Shown here in pieces: positions 1 through 20,823 of a DNA stretch of 44,585 nucleotides. This stretch comes from Bacteroidota bacterium (GTDB lineage Bacteria > Bacteroidota > Bacteroidia > Bacteroidales > CG2-30-32-10): positions 1 through 44,585 of the forward strand of contig JAAXXA010000001.1 in NCBI GenBank assembly GCA_013334735.1, given 5' to 3'. Position 1 is the stretch's first letter. Every line of letters starts with the position of its first letter. Made by a program: the position numbers and the translations under genes. The notes beneath the pieces were generated by a model. It was not told where the DNA came from and made no database searches. It saw only the letters and a list, made by a program, of their open reading frames with translations.

Positions 1-834
1 ATCTTGAAGAGTGTTGACTGTAGGATATGCCCATGCAGAAATAGTAAATGCGCTTGCCGCGTAATCAAAGGCAGTCCCTAAATCAATGTAACTAGGAACT
101 GTACGTGTAAACAGACCCCCTTGGTCTATTTTCCCATAAGTAGAGTTATAGGTAATTGTATGATCTGTTCCAGTATGACTATTGCCAGTAGCGTCATTAC
201 TGTTTCCTTCAAATTTCCAATAAGCAACTATGTTTGCAGCCAAATTTGCAGTAGTAACTGAAATAGTATTTGAATTACTACTTAAATTGCATGAGTTATT
301 AGCCCTTAAGCGATAGTAATAAGCCGTATTGCCGGAAAGACCGGTTACGATACAGGTGGTAACATTGCCTGCATTATTATTATTAAAGCCAGTTACTAAA
401 CTGCCAAAACCGCTACTTGTAGATACATCAAGATAATAAGATGTTGCTCCGTCAGATGCCGACCAGTTTGCTGTAAACTGGTTTTGGGTTGCACTTGTAC
501 CGGAAGTTGCCACAGGCGCTACTAATGATGTTTTTACGCTTATCCAGGATGAACCATTATAATATTGCAAATCATTGCAATCGGTATTGTAAATTATAAG
601 ACCCGTGGCGGGGGATGCAGGACGGTTTGCTGTTGTCAAGCGAGGTATAAGCAAACCCTGATTAGTACTACTTATATCGAGTGCTGCCGAGTTATCAGCT
701 TCGGCACCGGTAGTATTGATTGACACGCCCTGAGAAAAACAGAGAAAAGATAAAAAAAGGCATAAGGTAATAAAAAAGGCATAAGGCATCCGCCTATGGC
801 GGAGGCATAAGGCAAAAGGAGATTTTGTTTTCAT
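1..834 (-). CDS. Secreted modular surface protein, N-module family, C-terminus cut by the window edge (signal peptide + N-module + Fn3-like + start of LamG-like domain)
   Basis: Not in the ORF track because it runs off the window. Hand translation of the minus strand from the ATG (plus cat 832-834) gives MKTKSPFALCLRHRRMPYAFFITLCLFLSFLCFSQGVSINTTGAEADNSAALDISSTNQGLLIPRLTTANRPASPATGLIIYNTDCNDLQYYNGSSWI..QFTANWSASDGATSYYLDVS..AANIVAYWKFEGNSNDATGN. The frame is exactly 278 codons down to position 1. The leader is almost identical to that of 10719..13007. Confidence 0.85.
   Translation of the reverse strand, partial: MKTKSPFALCLRHRRMPYAFFITLCLFLSFLCFSQGVSINTTGAEADNSAALDISSTNQGLLIPRLTTANRPASPATGLIIYNTDCNDLQYYNGSSWISVKTSLVAPVATSGTSATQNQFTANWSASDGATSYYLDVSTSSGFGSLVTGFNNNNAGNVTTCIVTGLSGNTAYYYRLRANNSCNLSSNSNTISVTTANLAANIVAYWKFEGNSNDATGNSHTGTDHTITYNSTYGKIDQGGLFTRTVPSYIDLGTAFDYAASAFTISAWAYPTVNTLQD
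778..813. repeat. 15-nt palindrome TCCGCCTATGGCGGA flanked by direct repeats GGCATAAGGC, inside signal-peptide codons
   Basis: GGCATAAGGC (778-787), A, TCCGCCTATGGCGGA (789-803), GGCATAAGGC (804-813). On the minus strand it encodes ..ALCLRHRRMPYA... Confidence 0.7.
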
Positions 835-868
835 AATCTTTAATTTTAAATGAATTTTATAAAATAAA

Positions 869-2521
869 TCAATTGTCTTTAATGCAACGAACGCTAAACC
901 CGTATGTTTTTATATCGTCAAATCTGGTAACAACAGCATAATCGGAACTTATGGAGCGATGCCATGAATGAGTGGCATCTCCTTCTGTAGCTGTACGCCA
1001 GTAGCTGCCTATGCCACCATCGCCGAACGTACTGCTAATATCGCGATAGCCGGCCGGAAGAGCGTTGAACCCGCTACTATTATTAATTGCTTGATTGTTA
1101 CCCACATTACCTGATGTGCTATTAGCATTCCAACCTGAAGTTGCTGCCATTGATTTTGCAATGTTTAAAGAATATCCAAAATTAGTTCCAAGATAAGTAG
1201 TTAAACTTGTCCATTCAGCATCTGTGGGTACATGCCATCCCGTTGGACAAATACCCTGTACAGGTATGGCCGGTTGTAATGATACGGTGTTTGAACAGTT
1301 ATCTTTATATCCCATAACCTCAGCCCATTGGTATAGGCCTCCATAAGTTGTGCAATTTGCTTCATTATTACCGAAGCAGTATTTTTCTACACTGCCGTTA
1401 TTTGTTTGTTCTGAAGATGAATTTATATAAGATCCACTAGTGCTGTAATTCAGGTTTTTTGCCATCCAGCATTGTGTACCTATTAGAACTGTATTATAAG
1501 TTTTACTGTCTCTGCTGTCTGTAAAAATGTCACCGCATGCGAAGCAGGATGAAGTATTATAAGTTATAGTATTTGAATTGTTACTTGGTCCACATGTATT
1601 GTATGCTCTTACCCGATAATAATAGCTTGTAGCGCATGTTAGCCCTGTAACATTAAAGGTGGTTATATTTGATACATTTAAATTGTTATAACTTGTAAGA
1701 ATACCGGAAAAGGCATTATCGGTAGCAACGTCTAAATAATATCCAGTAGCGCCGGATGAAGTTGTCCAATTAGCTGTAATCTGTGTTTGAGTGGCTCCGC
1801 TGCCTGCCGTGGCAATAGGTGGAAATATTGATAAACTGTTATTAACATTCAACCAGTTTGTGCCATTGTAATATTGCAGATCATTACAATCGGTATTATA
1901 GATTATGAGACCTGTGGCAGGAGAGGCAGGTCTGTTAGCTGCAGTAATGCGGGGTAATAATATACCTTTATTGGTAAAATTAATATCCACTCCAGCTGAT
2001 GAAGACGGTGATACTGTTCCTATACCTATATTTGTTCCATTGTTATATAATAAACTGTTTGCAACCCAGTTAGAGCCGTCGTTTAGTAGGGTTTGTCCTA
2101 AAGTACCTGCAACCAAAGGACCTGTTGCTCCTGTTGCGCCTGTATTACCTGTAGCTCCATTGGTTCCATTAGTACCTGTAGCACCTGTCGGTCCTATTGC
2201 CTGCATCCATGCAGAACCATTGTAATAATAGTAACCGGTAGTGTTGTCGATTTGATAAATTAAGCATCCTGTAGCAGGCGCATGACCGGCGATACCATCG
2301 GAGCCAATTAACTGATTCCTCTGAGCCATTGTCATTCTTGGAATAAGTGCGCCTTGCGTTGTACTACTTATATCAAGGGCTGCCGAGTTATCGGCTTCAT
2401 TGCCGGTTGTATTGATGCTTACACCCTGAGCGAAACAATAAACAATTAATAATTGACAAATTACAATTAGCAAAGCATACATGACGTTTCTTGCGAATCG
2501 AAAGGTGTTTTTTGTTTCCAT
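869..2521 (-). CDS. Secreted N-module family protein: N-module x2, collagen-like GXY tract, Fn3-like, C-terminal TIGR02145-type (Fibrobacter succinogenes major paralogous) lectin-like domain
   Basis: Track ORF 869..2605 opens with a TTG (plus caa 2603-2605) and 28 non-signal residues. The in-frame ATG at 2521 gives METKNTFRFARNVMYALLIVICQLLIVYCFAQ/GVSINTTG and lies about 44 nt below a TAnnTTTG box. Motifs seen: GVSINTTGNEADNSAALDISSTTQGALIPRMT; GPTGATGTNGTNGATGNTGATGATGPL; QITANWTTSSGATGYYLDV..YYYRVRAYN; DSRDSKTYNTVLIGTQCWMAKNLNY..YGGLYQWAE..CPTGWHVPTDAEW..FSVRCIKDN. Confidence 0.85.
   Translation of the reverse strand: METKNTFRFARNVMYALLIVICQLLIVYCFAQGVSINTTGNEADNSAALDISSTTQGALIPRMTMAQRNQLIGSDGIAGHAPATGCLIYQIDNTTGYYYYNGSAWMQAIGPTGATGTNGTNGATGNTGATGATGPLVAGTLGQTLLNDGSNWVANSLLYNNGTNIGIGTVSPSSSAGVDINFTNKGILLPRITAANRPASPATGLIIYNTDCNDLQYYNGTNWLNVNNSLSIFPPIATAGSGATQTQITANWTTSSGATGYYLDVATDNAFSGILTSYNNLNVSNITTFNVTGLTCATSYYYRVRAYNTCGPSNNSNTITYNTSSCFACGDIFTDSRDSKTYNTVLIGTQCWMAKNLNYSTSGSYINSSSEQTNNGSVEKYCFGNNEANCTTYGGLYQWAEVMGYKDNCSNTVSLQPAIPVQGICPTGWHVPTDAEWTSLTTYLGTNFGYSLNIAKSMAATSGWNANSTSGNVGNNQAINNSSGFNALPAGYRDISSTFGDGGIGSYWRTATEGDATHSWHRSISSDYAVVTRFDDIKTYGFSVRCIKDN
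2114..2194 (-). repeat. Collagen-like GXY tract, 9 triplets
   Basis: Encodes GPT GAT GTN GTN GAT GNT GAT GAT GPL within 869..2521. Confidence 0.8.
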
Positions 2522-2564
2522 AATTTTTGTTTTTAATATTTGACCGAAAATAAGTGTGTAATTA

Positions 2565-2572
2565 CAAAAATA
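2565..2572 (-). promoter_or_regulatory. Candidate Bacteroidota -7 promoter box (TATTTTTG)
   Basis: Plus caaaaata reads TATTTTTG on the minus strand and matches TAnnTTTG. It lies about 44 nt upstream of the ATG at 2521. I found no clear -33 TTTG. Confidence 0.35.
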
Positions 2573-2710
2573 ATCTATTATATAATAAAATCCTATTTTA
2601 AACAATTAAAAATTAATGATTAAACAAAATGCTATTCGGAAACTTTAACTTTGGATATTGAAATTTTGATAATTGAAAAATAAATTAATAAATTAAAATG
2701 GATACTGTAT

Positions 2711-2759
2711 AACAATCAATAGTTAGCAATCAGCAGTCTGCAATCAGAAATCAACAAAG
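2711..2759. repeat. Degenerate heptanucleotide tandem array (7 units, consensus AGCAATC)
   Basis: Read in register from 2711: aacaatc aatagtt agcaatc agcagtc tgcaatc agaaatc aacaaag. The array is intergenic, 190-238 nt upstream of the ATG at 2521. Confidence 0.6.
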
Positions 2760-2826
2760 TGTGGTGAGAGATATGTTTCGTGTTTATTATTAACTAGATA
2801 CCAAACTTAATTGGGCATTGGCTATT

Positions 2827-3825
2827 TCATTTCAAGCAATCTAAAAGTGTTTTTTGCCTGAAGTCAAATCTGTCTGATTGGTCCTTTTTTTCAATTATAT
2901 ATCTGAATTTTAGTCCTTTATTACCAATGATAAATCGTTTCAAATATCCATGCTTATAATTGTATATTGTCCATTTTGAACCATGTCGTTTGTAAACCCA
3001 GCTAATACCGGACACTCTTTCATAATCTTCCTTATCGAAAATTATTTTGATAATACCATGAACAGAGTTTATTGTAAGTTCAACTGTATCAGTATTTATG
3101 AAAGAATAAATATTTAAAGCATTGTTTTTATATAAAACAGATTTCCTGAAATCAAACTGAAAATCTTTACATTCAATACCTCTGAATCCTTTATTTCCCG
3201 GTTTTTGTCCATGCAATTTTAATATATATGCATGCATTGATAGTTGTTTATTGTTGTCTAAAGTTACCACACTATATTTACTATTGCCATCCTTTACTAC
3301 TCTCCAAACACATTTGGAAATTTTTAAATAATCTGCTTTATCGAAAATAACAGAAAATGGATCGCTATTTCTACGGTAAATTTCCATTTTCATGGTATCC
3401 TTATCAATTATAGTATAAACATTTCCGGTTTCAGAATATTGGTTTCGCCTCAAATCCCATAAAGTTTTTCCTTTTACTTTTCCGCAAATACGAAAATCAT
3501 TATTGCCAATATATTGGCCGATTGTAGGCGATTTTTTACCTACGCTTGTGCATGGAGGACGCGTGCCTTTTGCTCCTCCCCAATGGTATTCTGAAACTTT
3601 TTCGTAATCGTCTTTTTCCAGAAGTATGGTATGTCCGGTTTTATTGCTTAGTTTATTAATAACTAATAACTTTACATAATGTTGATTTACCTTGTAAACA
3701 TTAGTGTATTTATATTTTTCGCTTTTGGATTTATCGGTATATCTATCTGGAATTATTGTTGTATAACTCATGTTTTTAAGATTTTTTAAGTTTTTTGTAC
3801 ATGTAAAGTCATTAATAGCAGTCAT
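2827..3825 (-). CDS. Hypothetical protein made of three tandem degenerate HNH_3/AP2-associated-like repeats (catalytic His/Asn positions not conserved)
   Basis: 332-aa ORF with an ATG start. It has three ~100-aa internal repeats, each with a hairpin motif (ILLEKDDYEKVSEYHW / VIFDKADYLKISKCVW / IIFDKEDYERVSGISW). Each is followed by a ..DxR+..L motif (KTLWDLRRNQY / FQFDFRKSVLY / DRFDFRQKTLL) where HNH_3 proteins carry vDH.ngn.LDNRr.NLR. The region is much more AT-rich than its neighbours. The start ATG overlaps the upstream stop (ATGA at 3822-3825). Confidence 0.7.
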   Translation of the reverse strand: MTAINDFTCTKNLKNLKNMSYTTIIPDRYTDKSKSEKYKYTNVYKVNQHYVKLLVINKLSNKTGHTILLEKDDYEKVSEYHWGGAKGTRPPCTSVGKKSPTIGQYIGNNDFRICGKVKGKTLWDLRRNQYSETGNVYTIIDKDTMKMEIYRRNSDPFSVIFDKADYLKISKCVWRVVKDGNSKYSVVTLDNNKQLSMHAYILKLHGQKPGNKGFRGIECKDFQFDFRKSVLYKNNALNIYSFINTDTVELTINSVHGIIKIIFDKEDYERVSGISWVYKRHGSKWTIYNYKHGYLKRFIIGNKGLKFRYIIEKKDQSDRFDFRQKTLLDCLK

Positions 3826-4208: not shown

Positions 4209-6026
4209 TTAATTAATATTTAATGATCTCCCTGTTTCTAAATAATTGACTCCGTCAAATACAAATTTAAAAATGTTAGTTTCATTTGGAGTAGTTGTTA
4301 ACGAGGGGGTTGTGATGCCAGACCACTTAATATTTGTAGGCCATGAAACTGCCTTTCCACCCGAGCCATTCTGTTTAATAATAAAAGTATAATTACCACC
4401 ATTCTTGCCATTTGTAAATATGAAAGAACGATTTGTTGCTAATGTAATTTCCTGCACATTGCTTTTATTCCAGTCAACTATGGCCGGGGTAGGAGTGGTA
4501 AAAGTTACCTCAATTCCATAACTTATACCAACTGAATTAACTGCATACGCCCTTACGTAATAGAGAGTACCCGCTGTTAAACCCGTTATTGAAGCTGTAA
4601 ATGCGCCGGTTGTACCGGCTGAAGTTGCTTTGTTATTCCCGGTTGTCGGAGCAGTAGAAGTATTCCAGCAAACGCCTCGCTCTGTTATTGTTGCTCCTCC
4701 ATCAGCGCTAACATTTCCATTCCCTATGGCAGTTGTTGCAGTAATACTTGTAACCGCTAGAGTTGTAATACTTGCAAGGTTGAGAGTAGTAAAAGTTACC
4801 TCATTTCCATAGCTTATACCAGCGGCATTAATAGCATACGCTCTAACGTAATATAAAGTGCCGACAGATAAACCTGTCATTGAAGCGGTAAATGCACCGG
4901 TGGTACCGGCTGAAGTTGCTTTGCTGTTGGCTGTTGTGGGAGTTGCAGAAGTATTCCAGCAAACACCACGCTCAGTTATTGATAATCCTCCATTTGCAGT
5001 TACATTTCCATTACCCGTAGCGGTTGTTGCTGCAATATTACTAACAGCCTGAGTAGTAACGCTTGGAATATTAAAAGTAGTAAAAGTTACCTCATTTCCA
5101 TAGCTTATACCAGCTGAATTAATTGCATAAGCTCTGACGTAATAAAGTGTATTGACAGATAAAGCAGTTATTGCAGAGGTAAATGCACCGGTAGTTCCGG
5201 AAGAAATAGCTTTGTTGTTTGCTGTTGTTGGAACTGTAGAAGTATTCCAGCATACACCACGTTCAGTTATTGTTGCTCCTCCATCTGCTGTAACATTTCC
5301 ATTACCTGTGGCAGTTGTTCCGGCAATATTTGTAACTGCTTGGGTTGTAAGGGTAGGATAAGTTGCCGGTGCCGGCTCAAGAACGAGAGTATATAAGAGT
5401 GGCCAATTCGATGAGCCAACCATGCCAAGACTAGCGCTACCGGCTGGAGTAATCGGACCTTTATCAATATTTTGTTGTGAACAAGTAGTCGCGGTTCTTG
5501 CTGTTTGACCAGATGGTTGAGTATATACAGCATTAGAAAAACTAGTCCCAACAAGCCACGCATTATTTGTAGTGGTTGTTACAGCGCAAGTTTGCGCCAC
5601 ACAAGCATTGTATTGAGGTGGCGTCTGCTGTTTTACCCCATTATATGAAGTAACAGTTGTGGTTTGGCTATCTATTGTTCTGTTAAGAGAAATTACAATA
5701 TCGTGAGTTCCTGTAGCCGGTCCAACAAGGTAATATAAAAAATCCTGTCGCTGCCGCGCATTAGTTAAAAGCCTTGTCATTGCAACTCCATTGTAAGTAA
5801 TACCCGTAACATCATCTGAGGCAGGATATCCAGTTTCGGTTGATACAATTAAAAAAGTATTTGTTCCTGAAACTGTATAAGAAAATGTTGAAGTCCAAAC
5901 CGGACCGGATGCATTATCAAAAGCTACCTGCGAAAAGAGGGAAATAGGAAGTAGAAATAATGACCAAGCAATTAGCGTATTAAATATTGTAAAATTTAAT
6001 TTTGTTTTTTCAAAGAATGTATTCAT
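4209..6026 (-). CDS. Secreted CTD-family protein: signal peptide + 'YNGV' domain + 3 Fn3-like modules (subtype 1) + shared C-terminal domain
   Basis: The track start at 6086 is a TTG (plus caa 6084-6086) that overlaps a TAAGTTTG -7 box. The ATG at 6026 gives MNTFFEKTKLNFTIFNTLIAWSLFLLPISLFSQ. There are three repeats of ..TTATGNGNVTADGGATITERGVCWNTS..TLYYVRAYAINSAGISYGNEVTFTT. The C-terminus is VDWNKSNVQEITLATNRSFIFTNGKNGGNYTFIIKQ..VSWPTNIKW..FKFVFDGVNYLE. Confidence 0.85.
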   Translation of the reverse strand: MNTFFEKTKLNFTIFNTLIAWSLFLLPISLFSQVAFDNASGPVWTSTFSYTVSGTNTFLIVSTETGYPASDDVTGITYNGVAMTRLLTNARQRQDFLYYLVGPATGTHDIVISLNRTIDSQTTTVTSYNGVKQQTPPQYNACVAQTCAVTTTTNNAWLVGTSFSNAVYTQPSGQTARTATTCSQQNIDKGPITPAGSASLGMVGSSNWPLLYTLVLEPAPATYPTLTTQAVTNIAGTTATGNGNVTADGGATITERGVCWNTSTVPTTANNKAISSGTTGAFTSAITALSVNTLYYVRAYAINSAGISYGNEVTFTTFNIPSVTTQAVSNIAATTATGNGNVTANGGLSITERGVCWNTSATPTTANSKATSAGTTGAFTASMTGLSVGTLYYVRAYAINAAGISYGNEVTFTTLNLASITTLAVTSITATTAIGNGNVSADGGATITERGVCWNTSTAPTTGNNKATSAGTTGAFTASITGLTAGTLYYVRAYAVNSVGISYGIEVTFTTPTPAIVDWNKSNVQEITLATNRSFIFTNGKNGGNYTFIIKQNGSGGKAVSWPTNIKWSGITTPSLTTTPNETNIFKFVFDGVNYLETGRSLNIN

Positions 6027-6083
6027 GTTTTTTTCTTTTTTACAGATAATGGTTTTTATTAAAATAATTATTGTGTAAAAATG

Positions 6084-6091
6084 CAAACTTA
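6084..6091 (-). promoter_or_regulatory. Candidate Bacteroidota -7 promoter box (TAAGTTTG)
   Basis: Plus caaactta reads TAAGTTTG on the minus strand. It lies about 58 nt upstream of the ATG at 6026 and overlaps the TTG that the ORF track used as a start. Confidence 0.4.
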
Positions 6092-6115
6092 ATATACAAA
6101 TAAATAATATTCTAT

Positions 6116-6165
6116 CTGGATTTTTTATGGATAGCCAAAAATTTTTATATGGATTTTTTATGGAC
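6116..6165 (-). promoter_or_regulatory. Phased ATGGAT hexamer array (4 sites in an 11-bp register) upstream of 4209..6026
   Basis: Hexamers start at 6116 (CTGGAT), 6127, 6149 (ATGGAT) and 6160 (ATGGAC). The spacings are 11, 22 and 11 nt. The array lies 25 nt upstream (minus sense) of the TAAGTTTG box. Confidence 0.6.
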
Positions 6166-6318: not shown

Positions 6319-8610
6319 TCAGGGAGCAGGCGCAAATGCAGCCATTATCCATAAAAAAGAACCGCCAGAACCTACATTAAAATTCATTGAGAAAGAACCG
6401 GCAGGAGTTATCGGACCATGATCATAAGTGTCAAAAGATTCCGCCCAATCCATTACACCACCTCCGGCAACATAAGTTGAATTAGTTCCTGGTGTAAGCC
6501 AAATAAATACTCCTGGAGCAGATGTTGCTAGCATAACAGAATAACAATTGTCAACTGTGGTTGTTACGGTTCCCGCTCCTGTTGTACCTGAACCTGTTCC
6601 TGTTGCCGAAACATTGAGTGGGGCGCTTTGATTTACACCTGTGTATGATTCTGCTATTCCTCCGAACCAATATCCCGAACCCGGTCCCCACATTTCTATA
6701 GTATTTGTTCCTGAGGCAGGATTGACTAAATACCAAATATTTGACTCGTCGCCAACATTACCGCCGTCAAGGTCTCCTTGAATTTGAGTAAGAGATACGC
6801 CATTATATTTTACAGCAGTTGCAGAGGAATGACCTTGACCTTCAGTCCATACAACAAGTAAACGGTTTGTTCCAGAACACGTATGTTGCCAAGTTGTATA
6901 TGTACAGTTGGGTCCTACGCTTGGGCGACTAGATGATGCGTCTCTTGCAATTAAAGTGGGATTAGTAGTTGTTCCGCTACCAATATTTGAATTTTCGCTT
7001 GCTCCGCAGGAATTATATCCTCTTACCCTGTAATAATAGGTTGTTCCGCTAGTTAAGCCTGTGATATTATAAGTTATCACATTACCCACATTCAAATTGT
7101 TATACGTTCCAACGAAAGTTGAAAAGTTTGTTGCAACAGAAACGTCTAACTGATAACTGGTTACGTTGGAAGATGCTGCCCAATTGGCTGTTATTTGTGA
7201 AGGTGTAGCTCCTGTAGCCGAGCTTGCAACCGATATTGCCGGTAAAGGATTAACCGTTACAGAATAATTTGAAGATATTGTTCCGTCTCCACAGGAATTA
7301 GTTCCCTTAACAGTTAAATTACCTGATGTAGCGCTTACGGAAAAATTAATTGTAACCGGGTTCGTTGATCCCGAAATTGTGGCTCCGGAACCTGAATAAG
7401 CCCAAGTGTAACTTGTTGCATCAGTTATAGATGGTACTGAATAAGAAACATTGTTTAGTCCCTGGCAAACTGTATTTGTTCCGGTAATTGTCGCTGCTGC
7501 AACAGGTAAGGGATTAACTGTTATCGGATAATTTGAAGATATTGTACCATCTCCGCAGGAATTAGTTCCTTTAACAGTTAAATTTCCAGATGTTGCGCTT
7601 GCTGAAAAATTAATTGTAACGGGATTTGCAGATCCTGAAATAGTGACTCCGGAACCTGAATAAGACCAAGTATAGCTTGTTGCGGCTGTTATAGCCGGTA
7701 TGGAAAAAGAAACATTATTTTGTCCAACGCAAACTGAATTTGTTCCTGTAATTGTTTCTGCTGCTGCCGGTAATGGATTCACTGTTACCGTGTAAGTGAA
7801 TTGATCGCCGTAACAACCGTTGGCATTAGGTGTAATCAGATATATTACATCTTTAGCTACTGCAGTGGTATTAATTAATGTTTCAGTTATTATATTGCCA
7901 GTTTGGCCAGATAATGCTGAATTGCTGATACCTGTTACTGATGCGCGCGACCAAGTATAAGTGGCGGTAACTGCGCTTGTTACAGTATAGTTCTGAGCTA
8001 CGCCACTGCATATTGAACCTGTTGCTCCGCTGCTAATTGCAGGTGTCGGATTTACCGTTAACAAAGTTGTATTTACTGCTGTTGCCGAACCGCAGGCATT
8101 ACTTGCAGTTAATGTATAGATACCGGTTCCCGCAGTTGTAATGTCCGAAATTACAGGGTTTTGTAATGTTGAAGTAAAACCATTCGGACCTGTCCAGCTC
8201 CAATTTGTTGCGCTTGTTGCATTACCAATTAGTAATAATGTATTTCCTGTACAAATTGTGGTTGAGGAAGGGGCAGCTGTAACAGCAGAAGGTGCGCTTG
8301 TGCAGCCACAAGCAATAGTCTGCCACACGCCGCTTTCATAAAATTCGAAACATCTTGTAGTTGTATTATAAATCTGAAGTCCTGTTGCAGGAGTGCATGA
8401 GCATTTAATTGCAATGCTGTCCCTTTGTAATGTTGTCATTCGAGTTATAAGGATTCCTTGGGCCTTACTGCTCACATCGAGCATAGCTGAATTATCGGCA
8501 GAAGCACCGGTGGAGTTGATCGCGGCGCCTCCAATCTGGGCGAAAGAAAGAAAAGTTGAAAAAAGGCATAAGGCAATAAGGTACAAGGCATAAGGTGTTT
8601 TTGTTTTCAT
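6319..8610 (-). CDS. Secreted N-module family protein: N-module + several Ig-like (PKD/HYR-like) modules + Fn3-like + C-terminal 'YNGV' domain
   Basis: The N-terminus MKTKTPYALYLIALCLFSTFLSFAQ is followed by INSTGASADNSAMLDVSSKAQGILITRMTTLQR. Two near-identical Ig-like repeats read ITGTNxVCxGxNNVSxSxPxITxATSYTWxYSGSGxTISGSxNPVTINFSxSATSGNLTVKGTNSCGDGTISSNY. An Fn3-like module (QITANWAASSNVTSYQLDV..TYYYRVRGYN) follows. The C-terminal ~210 aa resemble the N-terminal domains of 4209.., 25444.. and 34767... Confidence 0.9.
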   Translation of the reverse strand: MKTKTPYALYLIALCLFSTFLSFAQIGGAAINSTGASADNSAMLDVSSKAQGILITRMTTLQRDSIAIKCSCTPATGLQIYNTTTRCFEFYESGVWQTIACGCTSAPSAVTAAPSSTTICTGNTLLLIGNATSATNWSWTGPNGFTSTLQNPVISDITTAGTGIYTLTASNACGSATAVNTTLLTVNPTPAISSGATGSICSGVAQNYTVTSAVTATYTWSRASVTGISNSALSGQTGNIITETLINTTAVAKDVIYLITPNANGCYGDQFTYTVTVNPLPAAAETITGTNSVCVGQNNVSFSIPAITAATSYTWSYSGSGVTISGSANPVTINFSASATSGNLTVKGTNSCGDGTISSNYPITVNPLPVAAATITGTNTVCQGLNNVSYSVPSITDATSYTWAYSGSGATISGSTNPVTINFSVSATSGNLTVKGTNSCGDGTISSNYSVTVNPLPAISVASSATGATPSQITANWAASSNVTSYQLDVSVATNFSTFVGTYNNLNVGNVITYNITGLTSGTTYYYRVRGYNSCGASENSNIGSGTTTNPTLIARDASSSRPSVGPNCTYTTWQHTCSGTNRLLVVWTEGQGHSSATAVKYNGVSLTQIQGDLDGGNVGDESNIWYLVNPASGTNTIEMWGPGSGYWFGGIAESYTGVNQSAPLNVSATGTGSGTTGAGTVTTTVDNCYSVMLATSAPGVFIWLTPGTNSTYVAGGGVMDWAESFDTYDHGPITPAGSFSMNFNVGSGGSFLWIMAAFAPAP

Positions 8611-13121: not shown

Positions 13122-15275
13122 TCAGTCTTTTAAGCAACGGAGTGATGCACCAAAAGCTTTTTCGTAGCTGACCATGTGGCTCGGACCACCATCGAAAGTA
13201 ATTAACCAGCTATTACTAGCGCTATTCTGCGTACTGCCCCAATAGTAGCCCCAGTAACCACGATATTCCAGCACACCATTAATTCTGAGTGTACCTGCTC
13301 CATGGATTTTTAAAACAGAATTATAAATGTCGGTATAATTAGGCCAACCAGCCACAACATTCGTCCATTCCGTGAAACTAGGGATACGCCAACCTGAGCC
13401 AAGCTCTGAGGTGCAGGGGTCGTTAATTGGAAGCCAATCACTTGCTTCACTAATTGAAATAGTCCATGTAGGAGTTGAGCCAACTTTATATCCCTGCTTT
13501 CGGTTAAACTGCCAATACCAACCCGCAGAGGCATCAGTTAAATCTGTAGCAGCAGAAGTTGCCTGTTGATCGGCGCCAAGGTTTTGGGTTATCCAGCATT
13601 TACTTGCTCCTGAAAGACTTGTTGTTACTGTGCCATAGTTTACTGTCTTTGTTACAGGGGCTACTCCAATGCCGAGTGTATGGGTAATAGGTAAAGCGTT
13701 GCCACAAGAAAATGCAGGAGTAGGATTGTCTTTAATGCAACGTATGGAATTACCAATAGCCTTGATTTCATCGTGATATACACCACAATAAGCGCTGTAA
13801 GATCGCATTAGCCAGCCGTAGGTAGCATCGTACTGCGAGCTACTCCAATAGAAACCGTAGTTACCTCGAAGACTTAACGAACCATCGCCGCTTGTCAGGT
13901 AGCCTGCAGCATGAAGTTTTAACACTGAATTGTAAGTGTCGGTGTATGTACTCCAATTTTGTGGAGAGCCATCAGCAGCAGTCCATTCAGTTTGGGTAGG
14001 GATACGCCAACCGTTGCCAAGCTCAATTTTGCATGGATCATTGACAGGCAACCAGTCGCTGGTTTCGTTTATAGAAGTAATCCAGGTTGTACTTGGTGTA
14101 CGAGTACTTCCATCGTGTTTATATCCCTGCTTTCTGTTAAACTGCCAATACCAACCTGCGGAGGCTTCAGAGGCATCAGTTGCTGAAGATGCCTGATTAT
14201 TAGAACCTAAGTTTTGAGTAATCCAGCATTTACTAGCGCCCGAAAGACTTGTTGTTACAGTTCCATAGTTCACTGTTTTTGTTTCAGGCGATACTGTACC
14301 AATAGTGTGGGAAACAGCATAAATGTTATCACAAGTAAAAGCAGTAGTAGTAATAACCACATCGTCAGTAGAAGCTGTACAAGTTGAATTTGAAATCGTC
14401 CAACGCAGAGTTGCTACACCGGGTACTTCTAATCCTGTTACTCCGGAAGTTGGAGAATTTGGAGTAGTTATGGTGGCTGTGCCGGATACTACTGACCACA
14501 AGCCTGTACCAACTGTGGGTGTATTTCCCGCTAATGTGGCAATGCTAACACCACCGGCAGGATTTATATCAGTACCCGCAGCAGCTGATGTTGGAGCCGC
14601 ATTTATCGTAATTGTTAAAGTTTGAGGAGTACCATTGCCACAAGTATTGCTTGGCGTAACTGTTAGTGTGCCGGAAGTAGCGGTAATGAAATTTGCAGTA
14701 ATTGAGTTTGAAGGGTAGCCTAATGGATAATTAAAACCTGTACCAGAATATGTCCAAGTATAAGTAACTCCAGAAACATTTGTAACTGAATAAGATACAT
14801 TACTCTGACTTTGGCAAACAGAGTTTAAACCTGTAATTATACTTGGTTGTGTAGGAGGTGTACAAGCGGCAGGGCACGATACTGTATTCCAAGCTCCATT
14901 TACATAAGCTTCAAAACAGTTTGTCGTAATATTAAATATTATAAGACCAGCTGCTGGTGATGTTATCAGATCACGTTGTGTTGTAGTCATACGTGGTATC
15001 AGTACGCCCTGTGTTGTACTGCTTATATCAAGGGCTGCGGAGTTATCAGCTTCATTACCGGTTGTGTTGATGCTTATGCCCTGAGAAAAACAGTGAAAAG
15101 TTAAAAAAAGGTATAAGGCAATAAAAAAGGCATAAGGCATCAGCCTATGGCGGAGGCATAAGGCATAAGGTGTTTTTGTTTTACTCACGTTATTATTTAT
15201 TTTAATAAGGTGTTTCCCGAATCGAGTTCGGGAAAAGCTGTGATCCGCCATTGGCGGACGTTTTGCTAAGTTCAT
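13122..15275 (-). CDS. Secreted N-module family protein with two tandem TIGR02145-related lectin-like domains; carries the same 90-nt post-ATG insertion
   Basis: MNLAKRPPMADHSFSRTRFGKHLIKINNNVS precedes KTKTPYALCLRHRLMPYAFFIALYLFLTFHCFSQ/GISINTTG. Two copies of ..VNYGTVTTSLSGASKCWITQNLG..AGWYWQFNRKQGYK..WLP(V/I)NDPC..GWRIP..EWT..S(I/L)RC(I/L)KD are present. Between them and the N-module lie Ig-like modules (CQSQSNVSYSVTNVSGVTYTWTYSG; GTGLWSVVSGTATI..LRWTISNSTC). Confidence 0.85.
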   Translation of the reverse strand: MNLAKRPPMADHSFSRTRFGKHLIKINNNVSKTKTPYALCLRHRLMPYAFFIALYLFLTFHCFSQGISINTTGNEADNSAALDISSTTQGVLIPRMTTTQRDLITSPAAGLIIFNITTNCFEAYVNGAWNTVSCPAACTPPTQPSIITGLNSVCQSQSNVSYSVTNVSGVTYTWTYSGTGFNYPLGYPSNSITANFITATSGTLTVTPSNTCGNGTPQTLTITINAAPTSAAAGTDINPAGGVSIATLAGNTPTVGTGLWSVVSGTATITTPNSPTSGVTGLEVPGVATLRWTISNSTCTASTDDVVITTTAFTCDNIYAVSHTIGTVSPETKTVNYGTVTTSLSGASKCWITQNLGSNNQASSATDASEASAGWYWQFNRKQGYKHDGSTRTPSTTWITSINETSDWLPVNDPCKIELGNGWRIPTQTEWTAADGSPQNWSTYTDTYNSVLKLHAAGYLTSGDGSLSLRGNYGFYWSSSQYDATYGWLMRSYSAYCGVYHDEIKAIGNSIRCIKDNPTPAFSCGNALPITHTLGIGVAPVTKTVNYGTVTTSLSGASKCWITQNLGADQQATSAATDLTDASAGWYWQFNRKQGYKVGSTPTWTISISEASDWLPINDPCTSELGSGWRIPSFTEWTNVVAGWPNYTDIYNSVLKIHGAGTLRINGVLEYRGYWGYYWGSTQNSASNSWLITFDGGPSHMVSYEKAFGASLRCLKD
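15183..15272 (-). repeat. 90-nt two-hairpin element inserted in frame immediately after the start codon (copy 2)
   Basis: It has the same element and the same position relative to ATG/AAAAC as copy 1, with about 6 substitutions in 90 nt. Both palindromes are retained, and the second stem is extended to TTTCCCGAA/TTCGGGAAA. Confidence 0.75.
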
Positions 15276-15297
15276 AATTTTAATTTTTATTTATTCG

Positions 15298-17613
15298 TTA
15301 AGGACAACTGGTGCATTGAATATTTTTTTTGGTTATTTGCGAAGTTTCAGTAGCTCCTGAACCTGTTGTAAATGAGGTTAAACCAGTGGAAACAGCAGAT
15401 GAGCCAACAGTAGTATTGCTTGAGTATAACGAGGATAATGTTTCACTACAACCGCTTGCGCCTGTATTATCTGTAATAACTAAAAAGAAATCAGTTCCAC
15501 CTACGCCAAAGCTATTAGTATAACCCACCATCGCAAATCCGTTACTCATATTCTGAATAACACTTTCAGCAGTTGAGCTAGTATTACCATAGTTTTTTGC
15601 CCATGTTATTTCTCCTGACTGTGTATATTTGATTAATAATAAGCTCCCTGAATAACCGCCTGTAACCATGTATGATCCATCGGATGATTGAATTAACAAG
15701 TTCGCTTTTCTATCTAAATATCCGGCAGTACCATATTTACAAAATATCATTGTGCCGGCAATATTAATTTTAGTAAGAAACAAACCACTTGCATCACTTG
15801 AACCGGATATTACATAATCGCCATTGCTATCCTGAATAAGTCCGCCTCCATTGCTCCAGTTCCCCGGCAAATTATAAGAATTTGCCCATGTAACACTTCC
15901 AGCGTTGTTGGTTTTAATTAACAGTAACCCCATAAAAGGGGAAGAACTGTGACCTGAGAACAAATATCCACCATCATTGGTTTTAATAACATTTGAGCAT
16001 AAGTCGTTAGTTGCACCACCGCTTGCAAATTTATTTGCCCAAATCACAGAACCACTAACATCTATCTTAAAAAAAGCCCAGTCATAATGTTCATAATGTA
16101 CCCAGGTTGCATCGTAAATAAAAGTATTTGCAGCAACAACAAAACTGCCTCCATCCTCAATAATTTTCTGAGCGCCGGAGCCTGCTTCCATGTTAGAGCC
16201 TCCATCATAAGTTTTTGTCCAGACAATAGCGCCTGAATCATCAGTTTTAATAATATAAATAGCGTCTGAAGAACCAAAACTACTTGTACCTCCACCAATT
16301 ATAAATCCTCCGTCCGATGTTTGCAAAATACAATTAGCGTAGTCATTGGCCGCACCACCATAAGTTTTACTCCATTGCAAGTTACCGAAAGAGTCTGTTT
16401 TTACAACGTAAACATCATTGCCTCCAGCCCCGAAACTGTTAGTATATCCAGCCATTATATATCCACCATCGCTAGTTTGTTTAATATCCATTCCCACATC
16501 ATCGCCCGTTCCTCCATAAGCAAACTGACCTTTCTCAACTGTTGAATTAACAGTTATTGCCATCCTACAGGGAGCGCTTGCGCCACAGGCATTATTTGCA
16601 ATAACAGAAATATCGCCTGATGCAGAACCAAAAGCAGCGGTAACACTTAAGCTTGTTGTAGGACTTACAGGTGTTAATACTGTTCCACTTGGTCCACTCC
16701 ATGTATATGATGTTGCTCCTGTAATAGCATCAATTGAATAAGCAACACCTGTTTGCCCGCTGCAGACTGTTACCAAACCGCTTATAGTATTTGGTTCAGG
16801 CAAGGTATCCGTTTCCAATTCATACCATTTATAAGAACCGTTTTCGAAAGAATAATTTAAAGTATTGTCGGTTAAGTTGTAAATCATCAAACCTTGCTTT
16901 GGTAATATTAAATTCCTTTCATCGCAAGTCATTCTCGGTATTAGTAAGCCGCTATTATTGGAATTCACATCAAGCATTGCAGAAGGGACTGCTTCGTATC
17001 CGGTAGTATTTATGGATACTCCTAAAGATGATAGGCTTGCGCCGGTAGATGCCGCCGAAACATACGTTTCACAAATAGTTTTCCACGAACTACCATTAAA
17101 ATACTGAAATGAATTATTATAATAAATTATTAATCCTCTGACAGGAGATGAAGGAAGAGATGTTGTTCTAGGAATTAGCACCCTTCTAGAAGTTGAATAA
17201 ATATCCAATATTGCTGAACTATCAGCAAGAGCGCCTATTTCATTTATAGCTATACCACCACCAGTTTTATTAATACCTGTTGCAGCAGAAGACAAAAACC
17301 CGGATGATAACTCGTACCACCCTGCTGTGCCTGCGCTTTTAAAATAATTAAACCTTTCAGAAGAGGTATTGTAAATTAAAAGACTTTCAGCCGGAGAAGG
17401 AATTGCATTTCTTTGAGCTTCAGTCATGCGCGGAATCAAAATGCCTTGGGATATAGTGCTCAAATCAAGTATTGCTGAGTCATCTGCAGCTGCACCCGAG
17501 GTATTGACGGCTATGCCTTGAGAAAAACAATTTAAAATTGATAACTGACAAGTTATAATTAGTGAGGTAAACACGAAGACATTTAAGAGTTTAAAAACTT
17601 TTTTCGTTGTCAT
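15298..17613 (-). CDS. Secreted N-module family protein: three tandem N-modules + Ig-like module + 7-8 bladed beta-propeller-like repeat region (SBBP-like)
   Basis: Starts MTTKKVFKLLNVFVFTSLIITCQLSILNCFSQ/GIAVNTSGAAADDSAILDLSTISQGILIPRMTEAQR. Further copies are INEIGALADSSAILDIYSTSRRVLIPRTT and INTTGYEAVPSAMLDVNSNNSGLLIPRMTCDER. Repeats of the type TSDGGYIMAGYTNSFGAGGNDVYVVKTDSFGNLQWSKTYGG recur about 7-8 times. Confidence 0.9.
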   Translation of the reverse strand: MTTKKVFKLLNVFVFTSLIITCQLSILNCFSQGIAVNTSGAAADDSAILDLSTISQGILIPRMTEAQRNAIPSPAESLLIYNTSSERFNYFKSAGTAGWYELSSGFLSSAATGINKTGGGIAINEIGALADSSAILDIYSTSRRVLIPRTTSLPSSPVRGLIIYYNNSFQYFNGSSWKTICETYVSAASTGASLSSLGVSINTTGYEAVPSAMLDVNSNNSGLLIPRMTCDERNLILPKQGLMIYNLTDNTLNYSFENGSYKWYELETDTLPEPNTISGLVTVCSGQTGVAYSIDAITGATSYTWSGPSGTVLTPVSPTTSLSVTAAFGSASGDISVIANNACGASAPCRMAITVNSTVEKGQFAYGGTGDDVGMDIKQTSDGGYIMAGYTNSFGAGGNDVYVVKTDSFGNLQWSKTYGGAANDYANCILQTSDGGFIIGGGTSSFGSSDAIYIIKTDDSGAIVWTKTYDGGSNMEAGSGAQKIIEDGGSFVVAANTFIYDATWVHYEHYDWAFFKIDVSGSVIWANKFASGGATNDLCSNVIKTNDGGYLFSGHSSSPFMGLLLIKTNNAGSVTWANSYNLPGNWSNGGGLIQDSNGDYVISGSSDASGLFLTKINIAGTMIFCKYGTAGYLDRKANLLIQSSDGSYMVTGGYSGSLLLIKYTQSGEITWAKNYGNTSSTAESVIQNMSNGFAMVGYTNSFGVGGTDFFLVITDNTGASGCSETLSSLYSSNTTVGSSAVSTGLTSFTTGSGATETSQITKKNIQCTSCP

Positions 17614-17655
17614 AAAAATGCATTAAGTTTTGGAGAATATGTGAATAATGCAGGT

Positions 17656-17663
17656 CAAATATA
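17656..17663 (-). promoter_or_regulatory. Candidate Bacteroidota -7 promoter box (TATATTTG)
   Basis: Plus caaatata reads TATATTTG on the minus strand. It lies about 43 nt upstream of the ATG at 17613. Confidence 0.4.
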
Positions 17664-17677
17664 AACGCGCTTAATAA

Positions 17678-18982
17678 TTAAAATGGATATTGCAAACCAG
17701 CACCACTATTGTATAAATCAGAAACTTCATTTGTTGTTAAAGCTCTACTCCAAAGCCCCATTTCATCTAACGATCCTTTTAAGTAACGAATAAAAGTATT
17801 TGTAGACCATAAAGCGCCAATGTGGATATTGTAGTTATTTGTATAAATAGAAGTAATGTTATAACCAGTATTTGCAGGTGTAGTACAAACATTGTTTTTA
17901 TAAATTTTAAAAGTGTTTAATCCTACATCGTATGTAAGGACTAAATGTGTCCAAATTCCCTCATCTGCCGCGGTTATATAATTAGATTGAGTTTGAAAAG
18001 AAGAATAATGATTTGTATTGTATGTACCGTCATCAGAGAATATGCCGTCAATAGCACCATTATTCCAGTACTCCAATCTCCATAAAAAACGATCAGGATC
18101 CTGTTCTGCCCAACGATCAATAAAACCTGAAATTTGTGAAGTTCCACCGGAAGCAAAATTTACCCAAAAAGACACAGAGAATCCACTCGAAATAGTGTTT
18201 AAACTGGTAGAAGAAACCCCCTTAAGATATTGATTAGTCCCATTTAAAACTATATGGTTATTTATAAGAGGAGATGTTCCTGAAAACTGCGCAGAATTAT
18301 AGTTACCCATATCGTTTGCATTACCGGTAGCATCAACAGCCGACACAGATCCCGATTCATCAAGTTTCCAAAAAGCAACCAGATTATTTGTTAAACTTAC
18401 CGTAGTTGTTGTGATAGTATTTGAATTCGCCCCTATTCCACAACTACTAACTGCTTTTACACGATAATAATAGGTTGCACCTGCTGTTAGTCCTGTAATA
18501 TTATAAGTAAGAGCTGTTCCAACATTCAAACTATTGTAAGTTCCCATAAAAGAAGCAAAATTGCTCACAGTTGATACATCAAAATAATAAGATGATGCTC
18601 CCGCTGAGGCGCTCCAGTTGGCTGTAAATGATGAGGCTGTTCTATTTGAAGCAGCGTTAGCTGTAGGAACCAAAGGAGGATTACATGGGCAAAACCCCAT
18701 ATTCCATGCTCCATTTACGAATGCTTCAAAGCACTTTGTAGTGGTATTGTATATAAGCAAGCCTTCGGCAGGAGAACTGATTAAATCTCTGTTTGTAGTA
18801 GTCATGCGGGGTATTAGCATTCCCTGATTGGTGGCGCTTACATCCAGCATTGCCGAATTATCGGCAGCAGCGCCGGTGGTGTTGATGCTTACACCCTGAG
18901 AAAAACAGTGAAAAGTTAAAAAAAGGTATAAGGCAATAAGGCATACGCCTATGGCGGAGGCATAAGGTGTTTTTGTTTTCAT
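17678..18982 (-). CDS. Secreted N-module family protein: N-module + Fn3-like + C-terminal LamG-like (Laminin_G_3 type) domain
   Basis: Starts MKTKTPYASAIGVCLIALYLFLTFHCFSQ/GVSINTTGAAADNSAMLDVSATNQGMLIPRMTTTNR. Fn3-like module: FTANWSASAGASSYYFDV..TYYYRVKAVS. LamG-like motifs: LVAFWKLDESGSVSAVDATGNAN..FSVSFWV..LDEMGLWSRALTTNEVSDLYNSGAGLQYPF. Confidence 0.9.
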   Translation of the reverse strand: MKTKTPYASAIGVCLIALYLFLTFHCFSQGVSINTTGAAADNSAMLDVSATNQGMLIPRMTTTNRDLISSPAEGLLIYNTTTKCFEAFVNGAWNMGFCPCNPPLVPTANAASNRTASSFTANWSASAGASSYYFDVSTVSNFASFMGTYNSLNVGTALTYNITGLTAGATYYYRVKAVSSCGIGANSNTITTTTVSLTNNLVAFWKLDESGSVSAVDATGNANDMGNYNSAQFSGTSPLINNHIVLNGTNQYLKGVSSTSLNTISSGFSVSFWVNFASGGTSQISGFIDRWAEQDPDRFLWRLEYWNNGAIDGIFSDDGTYNTNHYSSFQTQSNYITAADEGIWTHLVLTYDVGLNTFKIYKNNVCTTPANTGYNITSIYTNNYNIHIGALWSTNTFIRYLKGSLDEMGLWSRALTTNEVSDLYNSGAGLQYPF

Positions 18983-19020
18983 AATAAATGTTTTTGTTTA
19001 TATTTTAATTTTAATTTTAA

Positions 19021-20823
19021 TTAAAAGGGGTACTGTAAACCCGCGCCACTATTATAAAGAGCGGATATTTCAGCTGTAGTTAAAACGCGAGACCAAACAC
19101 CGGCCTCATCAATATTTCCATCAAAAGTATTTAATGAAGCTGGGCATTGAATACCGATTGAACAGAAGGTAGAACCTATGTTCAGAGTATTCACAAAAGT
19201 TTGCTCTGTTCCAATATAAGAACCATTAGCATAAAAATTGACTTTTTTTGTAGAACCTTTTATTGTCATAGTGTACATTACCCAACTTCCAACAGCATAA
19301 GAATAATTAATATAAACATCATTACTGTAACTAATACAACACAAACCAGAAGCAGTAAAACCTAAACCGCATGATTGCGCAGTTGCAGCTGTACCGAACT
19401 CGACAGTACCTGCCAAACCAATTTGTGCAACTCTTGGTCTTGCCCAAACATTTATCGTTATGTCTGATAAACCTGAAAGTCCTGATGGGCTCGATTTTAT
19501 TAAGTATCTATCCCCTGAAGGATTAGTCAAAACACCATTATTTATTTTTCCTGCAGGATATGTAGCTGTATTAGTATTTGTAAGTGTATTTGAACCAACA
19601 GCATCTACAGCATTTCCCGAAGATTCGTCCAATTTCCAATATGAAACTAAATTAGCTGCTATATTAGCTGTAGTTACACTGATAGTATTTGAATTTCCAC
19701 TGCTTCCGCAACTGTTAACTGCCCTTACACGATAATAATAGCTTGTTCCGATAGTTAATCCTGTAATATCGTACGAAAGTATATTTCCTACATTAAGATT
19801 GTTATACCCTGTTACAAATGAAGAGAAACCTGTATTTAACGAAACATCAATACAATAAGATGTAGCATAAGTGGAAGAATTCCAGTTGGCTTTGAACAGG
19901 TGAGAGCCTATTCCTGTGGCTTCTAGTGTAGTAACAGAAGCGGGCAAGTTGTTAACTGTTAATGTAGCAATTCCGTCAGAGGTTGTATATGTACATGTGC
20001 CACTGACTATACAGCGGTATTTGTAAGTATTCATTTCAACTGAAGGATTAGTTATGGTTAAAGTTGCTGTAGTAGCCCCAGAATAAACACCTGCATTTGC
20101 TACATCATTCCAACTACTTATATACTCCTGCCATTGATAAGCTAATCCTGATCCTGTTGCTGTAAGTGTGAATGAAGGAGCTCCTATACCTCCACAAACA
20201 GCGGTAGGACTTACCGGTTGTATTGTAATACTTGGGGGTGTGGGATTCACAGCTATTCCATAGTTAGCCGAAATAACGCCATTGCCACAAGCATTTGCTC
20301 CAGTAACAGTAAGGTTGCCGGAAGAAGTAGTTTCTGAAAAATATACAATTACCGCATTTGTTGAACCGACGATAAAAGCCCCTGTTCCTGAATAAGACCA
20401 TATATAGCTAGTGGCTCCGGCAATAGCGGGAACTGAATATAAAACCGCACTTTGACCGGGACAAACATTAGTTGTTCCGCTAATGGTTCCTGCTGCTGAA
20501 GGAAGTGTACAAGTGGTGGGACATGATACAATGTTCCAAGCTCCATTTACATAAGCTTCAAAACAGTTTGTCGTAATATTAAAAATCATAAGACCGGTAG
20601 CAGGTGAAGTTATCAAATCCCGCTGTATTGTGGTCATGCGTGGCATCAGCACTCCTTGCGTTGTACTGCTTATATCAAGGGCTGCGGAGTTATCAGCTTC
20701 ATTGCCGGTGGTATTGATTGATACACCTTGAGAAAAACAATTAACAATTGATAATTGACTATTGATAATTAGCAGGGCATAAATAATGCATTTTGCAATT
20801 TTGAAAGTTTTTTTTATTTTCAT
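19021..20823 (-). CDS. Secreted N-module family protein: N-module + 2 Ig-like modules + Fn3-like + LamG-like domain
   Basis: The track start at 20862 is a TTG (plus caa 20860-20862). The ATG at 20823 gives MKIKKTFKIAKCIIYALLIINSQLSIVNCFSQ/GVSINTTGNEADNSAALDISSTTQGVLMPRMTTIQR. The protein ends LVSYWKLDESSGNAVDAVGSN..IDEAGVWSRVLTTAEISALYNSGAGLQYPF. Confidence 0.85.
   Translation of the reverse strand: MKIKKTFKIAKCIIYALLIINSQLSIVNCFSQGVSINTTGNEADNSAALDISSTTQGVLMPRMTTIQRDLITSPATGLMIFNITTNCFEAYVNGAWNIVSCPTTCTLPSAAGTISGTTNVCPGQSAVLYSVPAIAGATSYIWSYSGTGAFIVGSTNAVIVYFSETTSSGNLTVTGANACGNGVISANYGIAVNPTPPSITIQPVSPTAVCGGIGAPSFTLTATGSGLAYQWQEYISSWNDVANAGVYSGATTATLTITNPSVEMNTYKYRCIVSGTCTYTTSDGIATLTVNNLPASVTTLEATGIGSHLFKANWNSSTYATSYCIDVSLNTGFSSFVTGYNNLNVGNILSYDITGLTIGTSYYYRVRAVNSCGSSGNSNTISVTTANIAANLVSYWKLDESSGNAVDAVGSNTLTNTNTATYPAGKINNGVLTNPSGDRYLIKSSPSGLSGLSDITINVWARPRVAQIGLAGTVEFGTAATAQSCGLGFTASGLCCISYSNDVYINYSYAVGSWVMYTMTIKGSTKKVNFYANGSYIGTEQTFVNTLNIGSTFCSIGIQCPASLNTFDGNIDEAGVWSRVLTTAEISALYNSGAGLQYPF

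Follow-up and report, generated by a model that had tools for sequence, protein, structure and literature searches.

Nine paralogous genes with a shared leader and an N-terminal PTL_trimer module in a Bacteroidales genome

Results and discussion

In this study, we analyzed a stretch of 44,585 nucleotides from a Bacteroidota bacterium (Bacteroidales, CG2-30-32-10; assembly GCA_013334735.1, contig JAAXXA010000001.1, positions 1 to 44,585), hereafter called the window, in which nine minus-strand genes (g1 to g9, Table 1) open with a leader and a common module. The sharing of this leader and module by all nine genes is real and far beyond chance, and the module belongs to the Pfam family PF26696, to which the name PTL_trimer is attached. 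With a probability of roughly 0.6, we consider that the nine genes encode mosaic adhesin-type proteins that are exported through the general secretory (Sec) pathway and combine a trimeric PTL_trimer hub with variable heads. The cleavage site, trimerization, surface or extracellular location and ligand binding of these proteins are predictions from sequence and models.

A common module of the PTL_trimer family

A profile was made from the nine N-terminal copies of the module and run against the six-frame translation of the window. It detected 14 copies, all on the minus strand and within positions 535-20730 (domain E-values 2e-15 to 6e-41), with two copies each in g2, g4 and g5, three in g7 and one in each remaining gene; the same search found none in the 21-44 kb part of the window. 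For eight copies the profile limits equal the module limits of Table 1; the other six were matched at 1844-2002, 8314-8529, 9898-10056, 11685-11843, 16819-17022 and 17074-17256. Thus, both the nine-gene family and the internal recurrence of the module, which an initial annotation made by eye had proposed, were recovered by the profile. The module length of about 65 residues given there holds for most copies (66-68 aa), but not for g2, g4 and g5, where a 10-aa insertion extends the module to 77 aa. Invariant residues in the alignment include G2, S15, A16, L28, R31, P41 and W63.

The initial annotation knew of no named family for the module, a view that has to be given up. Scans of the module alone against Pfam and NCBIfam gave no match at E-values up to 10, with a library release that does not contain PF26696. 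PF26696 is present, however, among the precomputed Pfam labels of the window's own proteins, namely the database copies of g8 (P0297, 100% identical; PF26696, PF13385 and PF00041), g9 (P0319; PF19408, PF26696 and PF13385), g1 (P0350; PF26696 and PF00041) and g2 (P0394; PF09603, PF26696 and PF00041). A match to an existing characterized family had been named as the result that would speak against a new family. Such a family is indeed catalogued and named, but a literature search found no characterizing paper, none that used the accession PF26696 or the name PTL_trimer, and no functional study. PF26696 therefore appears to be catalogued rather than experimentally characterized.

The database search with a module profile, also suggested in the initial annotation, returned the PF26696 label on 120 of the 120 best matches. 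When 1.84 billion representatives were searched exhaustively with the profile, 57,634 representative clusters matched at E ≤ 1e-3 and 33,725 at E ≤ 1e-10. Individual proteins carry up to 15 copies, and some carriers approach 5,000 aa. Almost all named carriers are uncultured Bacteroidota (Bacteroidales, Chitinophagaceae, Saprospiraceae and others). The closest named relatives are proteins of metagenome-assembled genomes (MAGs) listed as 'Bacteroidetes bacterium' with HGB12 locus tags, and the best identity among species-representative genomes was 68%. Comparable arrays exist elsewhere: 14 module genes lie on one strand within 23 kb of a Bacteroidales MAG (L042, JADJEQ010000038.1, 991-22617), and seven on one strand within 14 kb of another locus (L054, 9103-22747). 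A layout of PF26696, fn3 and PF09603 (FISUMP) in about 420 aa is frequent in metagenomes; further partners of PF26696 are Collagen, Gly_rich_2, Kelch, DUF2341 and a fibrinogen C domain (P0346).

A conserved 112-aa protein of Ferruginibacter/Chitinophagaceae has no parts other than a signal peptide, a single module and a short tail that terminates in TDKQNTLIYTxKGF (P0054 at L001 8001-8339, P0017, P0031, P0072 and P0102). The module can therefore exist without any head.

Leaders and export

The leader ends in CF(S/A) before Gln in eight of the nine genes, as described initially, the exception being g3 with SFA. As read from the sequence, each leader has two to six Lys or Arg ahead of its last 15 residues, followed by a hydrophobic core, and all nine have small residues at -3 and -1 and Gln at +1. 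In Bacteroidota, signal peptidase I usually cleaves so that Gln becomes residue +1 (the Q-rule). The leaders fit Sec export with signal peptidase I cleavage of this type, at a predicted site directly before Gln.

The same arrangement is common in homologs. Among 262 homologs starting with Met, the first module begins by residue 40 in 209 (median residue 24), and Gln lies no more than three residues from the module start in 165 of the 216 homologs with an N-terminal module. Because of this early start and the adjacent Gln, the module usually stands at the very beginning of the mature protein.

Variable heads, stalks and mosaic evolution

Downstream of the constant part, the proteins diverge. 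The head types recognized initially were recovered with Pfam and NCBIfam: FISUMP (Fib_succ_major/TIGR02145) heads in g2, g4 and g5 and two divergent FISUMP-like domains in g6, LamG (Laminin_G_3) heads in g8, g9 and probably g1, and an SBBP-like propeller in g7, which is a weak match. The C-terminal 'YNGV' domain of g3 has no family name. Between module and head, fn3 and PKD_6/PKD_5 domains are found. Fib_succ_major/DUF1566 motifs define a C-type-lectin-class group among the variable proteins of diversity-generating retroelements (DGRs), one member of which is surface exposed (PMC5758913). A ligand-binding role for the FISUMP heads is supported by this relationship.

Collagen-like Gly-X-Y (GXY) tracts occur in three of the nine proteins, namely g2 (9 triplets), g4 (10) and g5 (19 and 4). 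They begin two or three residues past module 1 and are followed by a short conserved segment and then module 2. With the Pfam Collagen profile, g5 reaches 31.6 bits and passes the cutoff of 27.2, whereas g4 falls short of it at 20.8 bits. The initial annotation described a collagen-like stalk as occurring often and compared the whole organization with that of receptor-binding fibers. The frequency of the stalk was overstated, whereas the constant N-terminus, the linker or stalk, the variable heads and a kinship with phage tail fibers (see below) all agree with the comparison.

Two local features of these regions may be mentioned. In g5, a globular domain of about 175 aa (11960-12500, residues ~170-345) separates the two collagen tracts and has no Pfam or PHROG match. 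In g3, two tandem in-frame repeats of 264 nt with 83% identity (within 7241-7768) encode the PKD_6 domains.

Nucleotide identities were compared segment by segment. Over the first 210 nt past the leader, g2, g4 and g5 share 87-91% identity, close to the 90% estimated by eye. In the leader, g1, g4, g5 and g6 are 89-92% identical and g2 pairs with g9 (75%); in the second half of the module, g6 and g9 share 86%; and in the upstream regions, g4 and g6 share 87%. Since the grouping of the paralogs changes from segment to segment, recombination or gene conversion is indicated, and the paralogs of the array are, as judged from these identities, mosaics with apparent breakpoints at domain borders.

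Two other routes of diversification were rejected for the window. For phase variation by DNA inversion, there were no convincing inverted repeats and no recombinase gene; for DGR diversification, there was neither a reverse transcriptase match among the Pfam-scanned long open reading frames (ORFs) nor a template repeat. A repeat search of the window returned only paralog-to-paralog repeats.

We also observed an element, GCCTCCGCCATAGGCGGATGCC, with the hairpin CCGCC-ATA-GGCGG and flanked by GCCTTATGCC direct repeats, in five signal-peptide coding regions (minus strand; 785-806, 10544-10565, 12958-12979, 15136-15157 and 18940-18961), where it encodes the residues ALCLRHRRMPYAFF. It may reflect recent duplication or a structure of the RNA or DNA at the 5' end.

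Relationship to phage tail fibers

Searched against PHROGs, the module gave weak to moderate matches to several families, one of which is a tail-fiber family. By tblastn, it was found in a 735-kb uncultured phage and in cyanophages, partly in proteins annotated as tail fiber protein, and at least 117 stretches of viral contigs encode a relative. Two positions are seen in these viral proteins: the module either forms the extreme C-terminus (last ~65 aa) of long proteins that match tail-fiber PHROGs, or starts at about residue 13 of leaderless proteins of about 212 aa. Positions were read from the viral loci L094, L106, L122, L139, L156 and L144-L162; in L156, two adjacent genes each end in the module. 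Foldseek searches of BFVD gave module-sized local matches (64-74 columns, root-mean-square deviation 1.8-2.9 A, 26-42% identity) to uncharacterized Caudovirales proteins. A relationship between the module and phage tail fibers is supported by these similarities.

A trimeric hub as the proposed organization

A collagen helix needs three chains in register, and Peptidase_S74 is an intramolecular chaperone of trimeric fibers. Both are found with the module: among 73 module proteins from related loci, a sample that leans to g6-like heads since g6 was the query used to fetch the loci, Peptidase_S74 stands at the end of five and Collagen occurs in three. On account of these partners, a trimeric fiber-like assembly is plausible for the window proteins.

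Structural models add to this. A single module was modeled with a predicted local distance difference test score (pLDDT) of 92.8 and a predicted template modeling score (pTM) of 0.74. Its weak fold neighbors in the PDB (E-values 0.08-2) are mostly trimerizing parts of trimeric proteins, namely the N-terminal domains of CBA120 TSP4 and TSP3, the trimerization domains of collagen XVIII and XV, Mtd, the streptococcal phage hyaluronidase fiber HylP, and GVE2 ORF18. The three-module region of g7 was predicted by AlphaFold2 as one confident body (pLDDT 92.2, pTM 0.89), with strands that are lacking in the single-module model, for example at residues 28-30. Its layout, in which the spacings are close to 82 and 85 aa and the middle copy is shortened, recurs in many homologs. 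The model suggests that the triple module of g7 could be a single-chain version of a three-module hub, presumably with corresponding symmetry. A Foldseek search of the PDB with this three-module model returned nothing meaningful, and a search of PDB sequences with the module profile at E-values up to 10 returned no match.

Taken together, the following organization is proposed. Signal peptidase I would cut behind (C/S)F(S/A), so that Gln becomes residue 1, and the mature protein would start with the PTL_trimer module, a putative compact beta-rich unit of phage tail-fiber origin. Three modules would pack as a hub, formed by a homotrimer in the single-copy paralogs and by one chain in g7. In g2, g4 and g5, the hub would set the register of a collagen-like triple helix, the far end of which would be closed by module 2. 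Stalks of fn3/PKD or collagen would bear variable ligand-binding heads, probably glycan-binding, with a valency of three, and the head repertoire would diversify by recombination between paralogs at domain borders.

Several points weigh against this organization. The case for a trimer leans on context, on non-significant fold matches and on a Pfam name. The single-module model has no PDB match at E ≤ 0.001 in Foldseek (best E-value 0.08); being predicted confidently as a monomer, the module may be a domain that is stable as a monomer. In six of the nine paralogs, the linkers are exclusively of the fn3/PKD type, as is typical for monomeric beads-on-a-string proteins. With regard to location, no sorting domain of the type IX secretion system (T9SS; TIGR04183, TIGR04131 or Por_Secre_tail/PF18962) was found in the nine proteins, nor in the 73 relatives at E ≤ 1e-5. 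A lipobox, with a small residue ahead of the Cys that becomes +1, was not seen in the nine leaders: the residue before Cys is H, N, Y or L and F-(S/A)-Q comes after it, and g3 lacks a Cys at this place. With both the T9SS C-terminal domain and the lipobox lacking, no route onto or across the outer membrane is evident, and the proteins might also be periplasmic.

Alternative explanations

One alternative is that the N-module is mainly a domain docking the protein to the producer's own envelope, with oligomerization secondary or absent. The module opens the mature protein in about 80% of the homologs and in all nine window genes, and the 112-aa proteins contain little else besides a signal peptide. 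Moreover, among the 120 matches listed, PF18962 is found in none of about 85 PF26696 proteins versus 5 of about 33 fn3-only matches, which implies that some other means of retention at the cell is needed, and a docking role was inferred for the constant N-domain of the mosaic adhesive trimer (MAT) fibers of Bdellovibrio bacteriovorus (PMC10769870). However, the module is also found internally, in up to 15 copies per protein, between collagen tracts, and at the extreme C-terminus of leaderless phage tail-fiber proteins, positions that do not suit an envelope anchor. We regard docking as the main role as unlikely.

It is even less probable that the proteins are monomeric beads-on-a-string adhesins in which the module is a small lectin-type ligand-binding domain. 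The confident prediction of a lone module and the purely Ig-like linkers of six paralogs would fit, as would the frequent location of the module at the C-terminal tip of phage fiber proteins, the usual place for receptor binding. On the other hand, collagen tracts lie directly next to the module in three paralogs as well as in relatives, Peptidase_S74 is joined to it in relatives, and the name of PF26696 contains 'trimer'. The module is also the most conserved part of the protein, whereas receptor-binding tips are usually the most variable.

There is very little room for a third reading, in which a prophage, tailocin or extracellular contractile injection system uses these genes for its structural tail fibers. 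In its favor, the two constant modules found in the island (the second is described below) match phage tail-fiber families, and the PTL_trimer module occurs in viral contigs; this origin was nevertheless rejected, given signal peptides in all nine proteins and no capsid, tail, baseplate, sheath, integrase or lysis family in the 22 long ORFs scanned (ORFs 25444-28491, 34767-37364 and 42861-44510 lay outside this family scan). The scanned ORFs have adhesin-type or repeat domains only, or no family, and the tandem paralog arrays, as in the two Bacteroidales-type loci L042 and L054, also argue against it. An assignment to the T9SS cargo or to the surface lipoproteins, the classes that hold most known surface proteins of Bacteroidota, would agree with the phylum, with the adhesin-type domains and with FISUMP domains in lipoproteins elsewhere (PMC5758913), but is hardly credible given the missing sorting domains in the nine proteins, the 73 relatives and the listed PF26696 proteins, and a leader Cys at -3 of Gln in a context that is not a lipobox.

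Comparison with known systems

The organization proposed here, with a trimeric PTL_trimer hub and variable heads, has its closest described counterpart, by analogy of architecture, in the MAT fibers of B. bacteriovorus. These are encoded by 21 genes in S74 and non-S74 subgroups, and consist of a signal peptide, a conserved beta-rich N-domain of about 130 aa, a trimeric stalk and swappable C-terminal tips that include lectin folds (PMC10769870). The window proteins are similar in forming a multigene family, in the signal peptide placed directly before a conserved N-domain and in the variable C-terminal tips, and Peptidase_S74 members exist among their relatives (5 of 73). They differ in the size of the N-domain (66-77 aa), the likeness being one of architecture as compared with the published description of MAT, and in the stalks, which are beta-helices or beta-prisms in MAT and collagen-like or fn3/PKD here; no Peptidase_S74 and no recognized beta-helix was found in the nine window proteins. 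The host also differs, being a Bacteroidales lineage that does not look predatory.

Phage tail fibers likewise have a constant attachment part and a variable distal part, and the module itself occurs in tail-fiber proteins. In contrast to them, the window proteins have signal peptides and are encoded in a chromosomal paralog array without virion genes; phage proteins often have the module at their extreme C-terminus, or N-terminally without a leader. The bacterial collagen-like surface proteins Scl1/Scl2, Lcl and BclA and the animal collectins/ficolins resemble g2, g4 and g5, in which GXY tracts stand beside a non-collagen registration domain and lectin-type heads are distal; in the relative P0346, PF26696 is even found together with a fibrinogen C domain. 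Unlike these proteins, the window proteins have no LPXTG or other known anchor, their collagen is limited to three of nine members, and the trimerizing module is unrelated in sequence. The FISUMP/TIGR02145 family of Fibrobacter and Bacteroidota accounts for four of the nine heads (g2, g4, g5 and g6); FISUMP is only a head, however, and heads of other types are present in five paralogs, whereas what stays constant in the window family is the N-module.

A bolder and doubtful hypothesis is that the entire 44-kb island is the Bacteroidota counterpart of MAT. Its exported proteins, at least 21 in number, would be regulated together and recombine with one another, and would present a single pool of binding domains (LamG, the 'YNGV' domain, Gly-rich and Ig-like linkers) on either of two domesticated phage-fiber modules, an N-terminal PTL_trimer hub and a C-terminal Phage_phiTE_241_C tip, the hub both trimerizing and docking without T9SS, with g7 as a single-chain form of the hub.

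The family itself is already catalogued, and the array is a good example of it rather than a new principle. PF26696 comprises tens of thousands of sequence clusters in environmental Bacteroidota with no functional study found. A phage-derived trimer hub would explain multivalent lectin-type adhesins and the reshuffling of their heads, and would imply a route of display or release independent of the T9SS sorting domain. A unit of 66-77 aa that registers collagen-like helices could also serve as a trimerization tag. The points of greatest interest are the trimer hub, its single-chain three-module form, export in the absence of a known sorting signal, and the less common second family.

Gene array and coordinates

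All 22 long ORFs in the window are on the minus strand, so the low coordinates in the initial annotation are stop ends. The N-terminus of g1 lies inside the window, and its C-terminus is cut by the window end. The start codons of g4 and g6 are probably GTG (at 10596 and 15188), which align with the ATG of the paralogs; the mechanical ORFs start upstream at ATGs (extending to 10737 and 15275). For g9, with ATG at 20823, the mechanical ORF extends to a TTG at 20862. Scans of the window for tRNA genes and Rfam families gave no match.

Table 1. Coordinates and predicted composition of the module genes and of the repeated upstream motifs in the window
Feature	Position	Strand	Description
g1	1-834	-	Signal peptide 733-834, PTL_trimer module 535-732, fn3, start of LamG-type head
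g2	869-2521	-	Signal peptide, module 1 2198-2428, 9 GXY triplets, module 2 1844-2041, fn3, FISUMP head
g3	6319-8610	-	Signal peptide ending SFA before Q, module 8314-8532, PKD_5, two PKD_6, fn3, C-terminal 'YNGV' domain
g4	8653-10596	-	Module 1 10261-10491, 10 GXY triplets, module 2 9898-10095, PKD_6, fn3, FISUMP head
g5	10719-13007	-	Module 1 12675-12905, 19 GXY triplets, ~175-aa globular domain, 4 GXY triplets, module 2 11685-11882, fn3, FISUMP head
g6	13122-15188	-	Module 14880-15083, PKD_6, linker domain, two divergent FISUMP-like heads
g7	15298-17613	-	Three tandem modules 17308-17520, 17074-17259 (shortened) and 16819-17025, PKD_6, SBBP-like beta-propeller
g8	17678-18982	-	Signal peptide, module 18698-18898, fn3, LamG head
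g9	19021-20823	-	Module 20527-20730, PKD_6, Ig-like domains, fn3, LamG head
TCCATAAAAAATCCATA clusters	6115-6164, 20938-20998, 22917-22966, 25333-25415	-	Upstream of g9 and of three second-family genes
Three copies of TCCATAA(A/G)AAATCCATA	20938-20998	-	Candidate operator ahead of g9, with which the g9-to-g3 block begins

A second family, a shared motif and other neighbors

A second exported family, made up of twelve further genes on the minus strand (4209-6086 and 21226-44510), has a mirror-image layout, in which a variable N-terminal part (LamG, Gly_rich_2 or 'YNGV') is followed by Ig-like repeats and a constant region in the last ~95 aa (consensus ATVNWNNSNVQEITLTANRSFTFTNGKSGGLYTLIIKQN..GGW.VSWP.NVKW). 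This C-terminal module is PF26209 (Phage_phiTE_241_C) and matches the C-termini of PHROG tail-fiber families. It is rare, with 26 matches in a word-indexed search, the best being from a MAG with HGB12 locus tags, and it was not found in 79 related genome loci or 80 viral loci. Of the two families, the second may be both rarer and more novel.

Several domains are shared between the two families. The 'YNGV' domain is common to the C-terminus of g3 and the N-terminus of gene 4209-6086, the linker domain of g6 resembles parts of the genes starting at 39034 and 40889, and the LamG domains in g8 and g9 are similar to those in the genes at 37394, 39034 and 42861. Within gene 4209-6086, three tandem in-frame repeats of 291 nt (4493-5365; 78-79% identity) encode Ig-like repeats.

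The motif TCCATAAAAAATCCATA occurs at nine sites in the window versus 0.04 expected. These sites are clustered in twos or threes, usually some 33 nt apart, within four intergenic regions, ahead of g9 and of the second-family genes 4209-6086, 21226-22833 and 22996-25266. The motif is a candidate operator or promoter element, and because its clusters precede g9 as well as three genes of the second family, common regulation of both families is suggested.

Between g2 and gene 4209-6086 lies a 332-aa ORF (2827-3825, minus strand) with no Pfam, NCBIfam or PHROG match and no signal peptide. It contains three internal repeats of about 90 aa (e.g., ...DK.DYE.VS...W...), and the stretch around it has a low GC content (0.32 versus about 0.40). 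This ORF looks like a foreign insertion.

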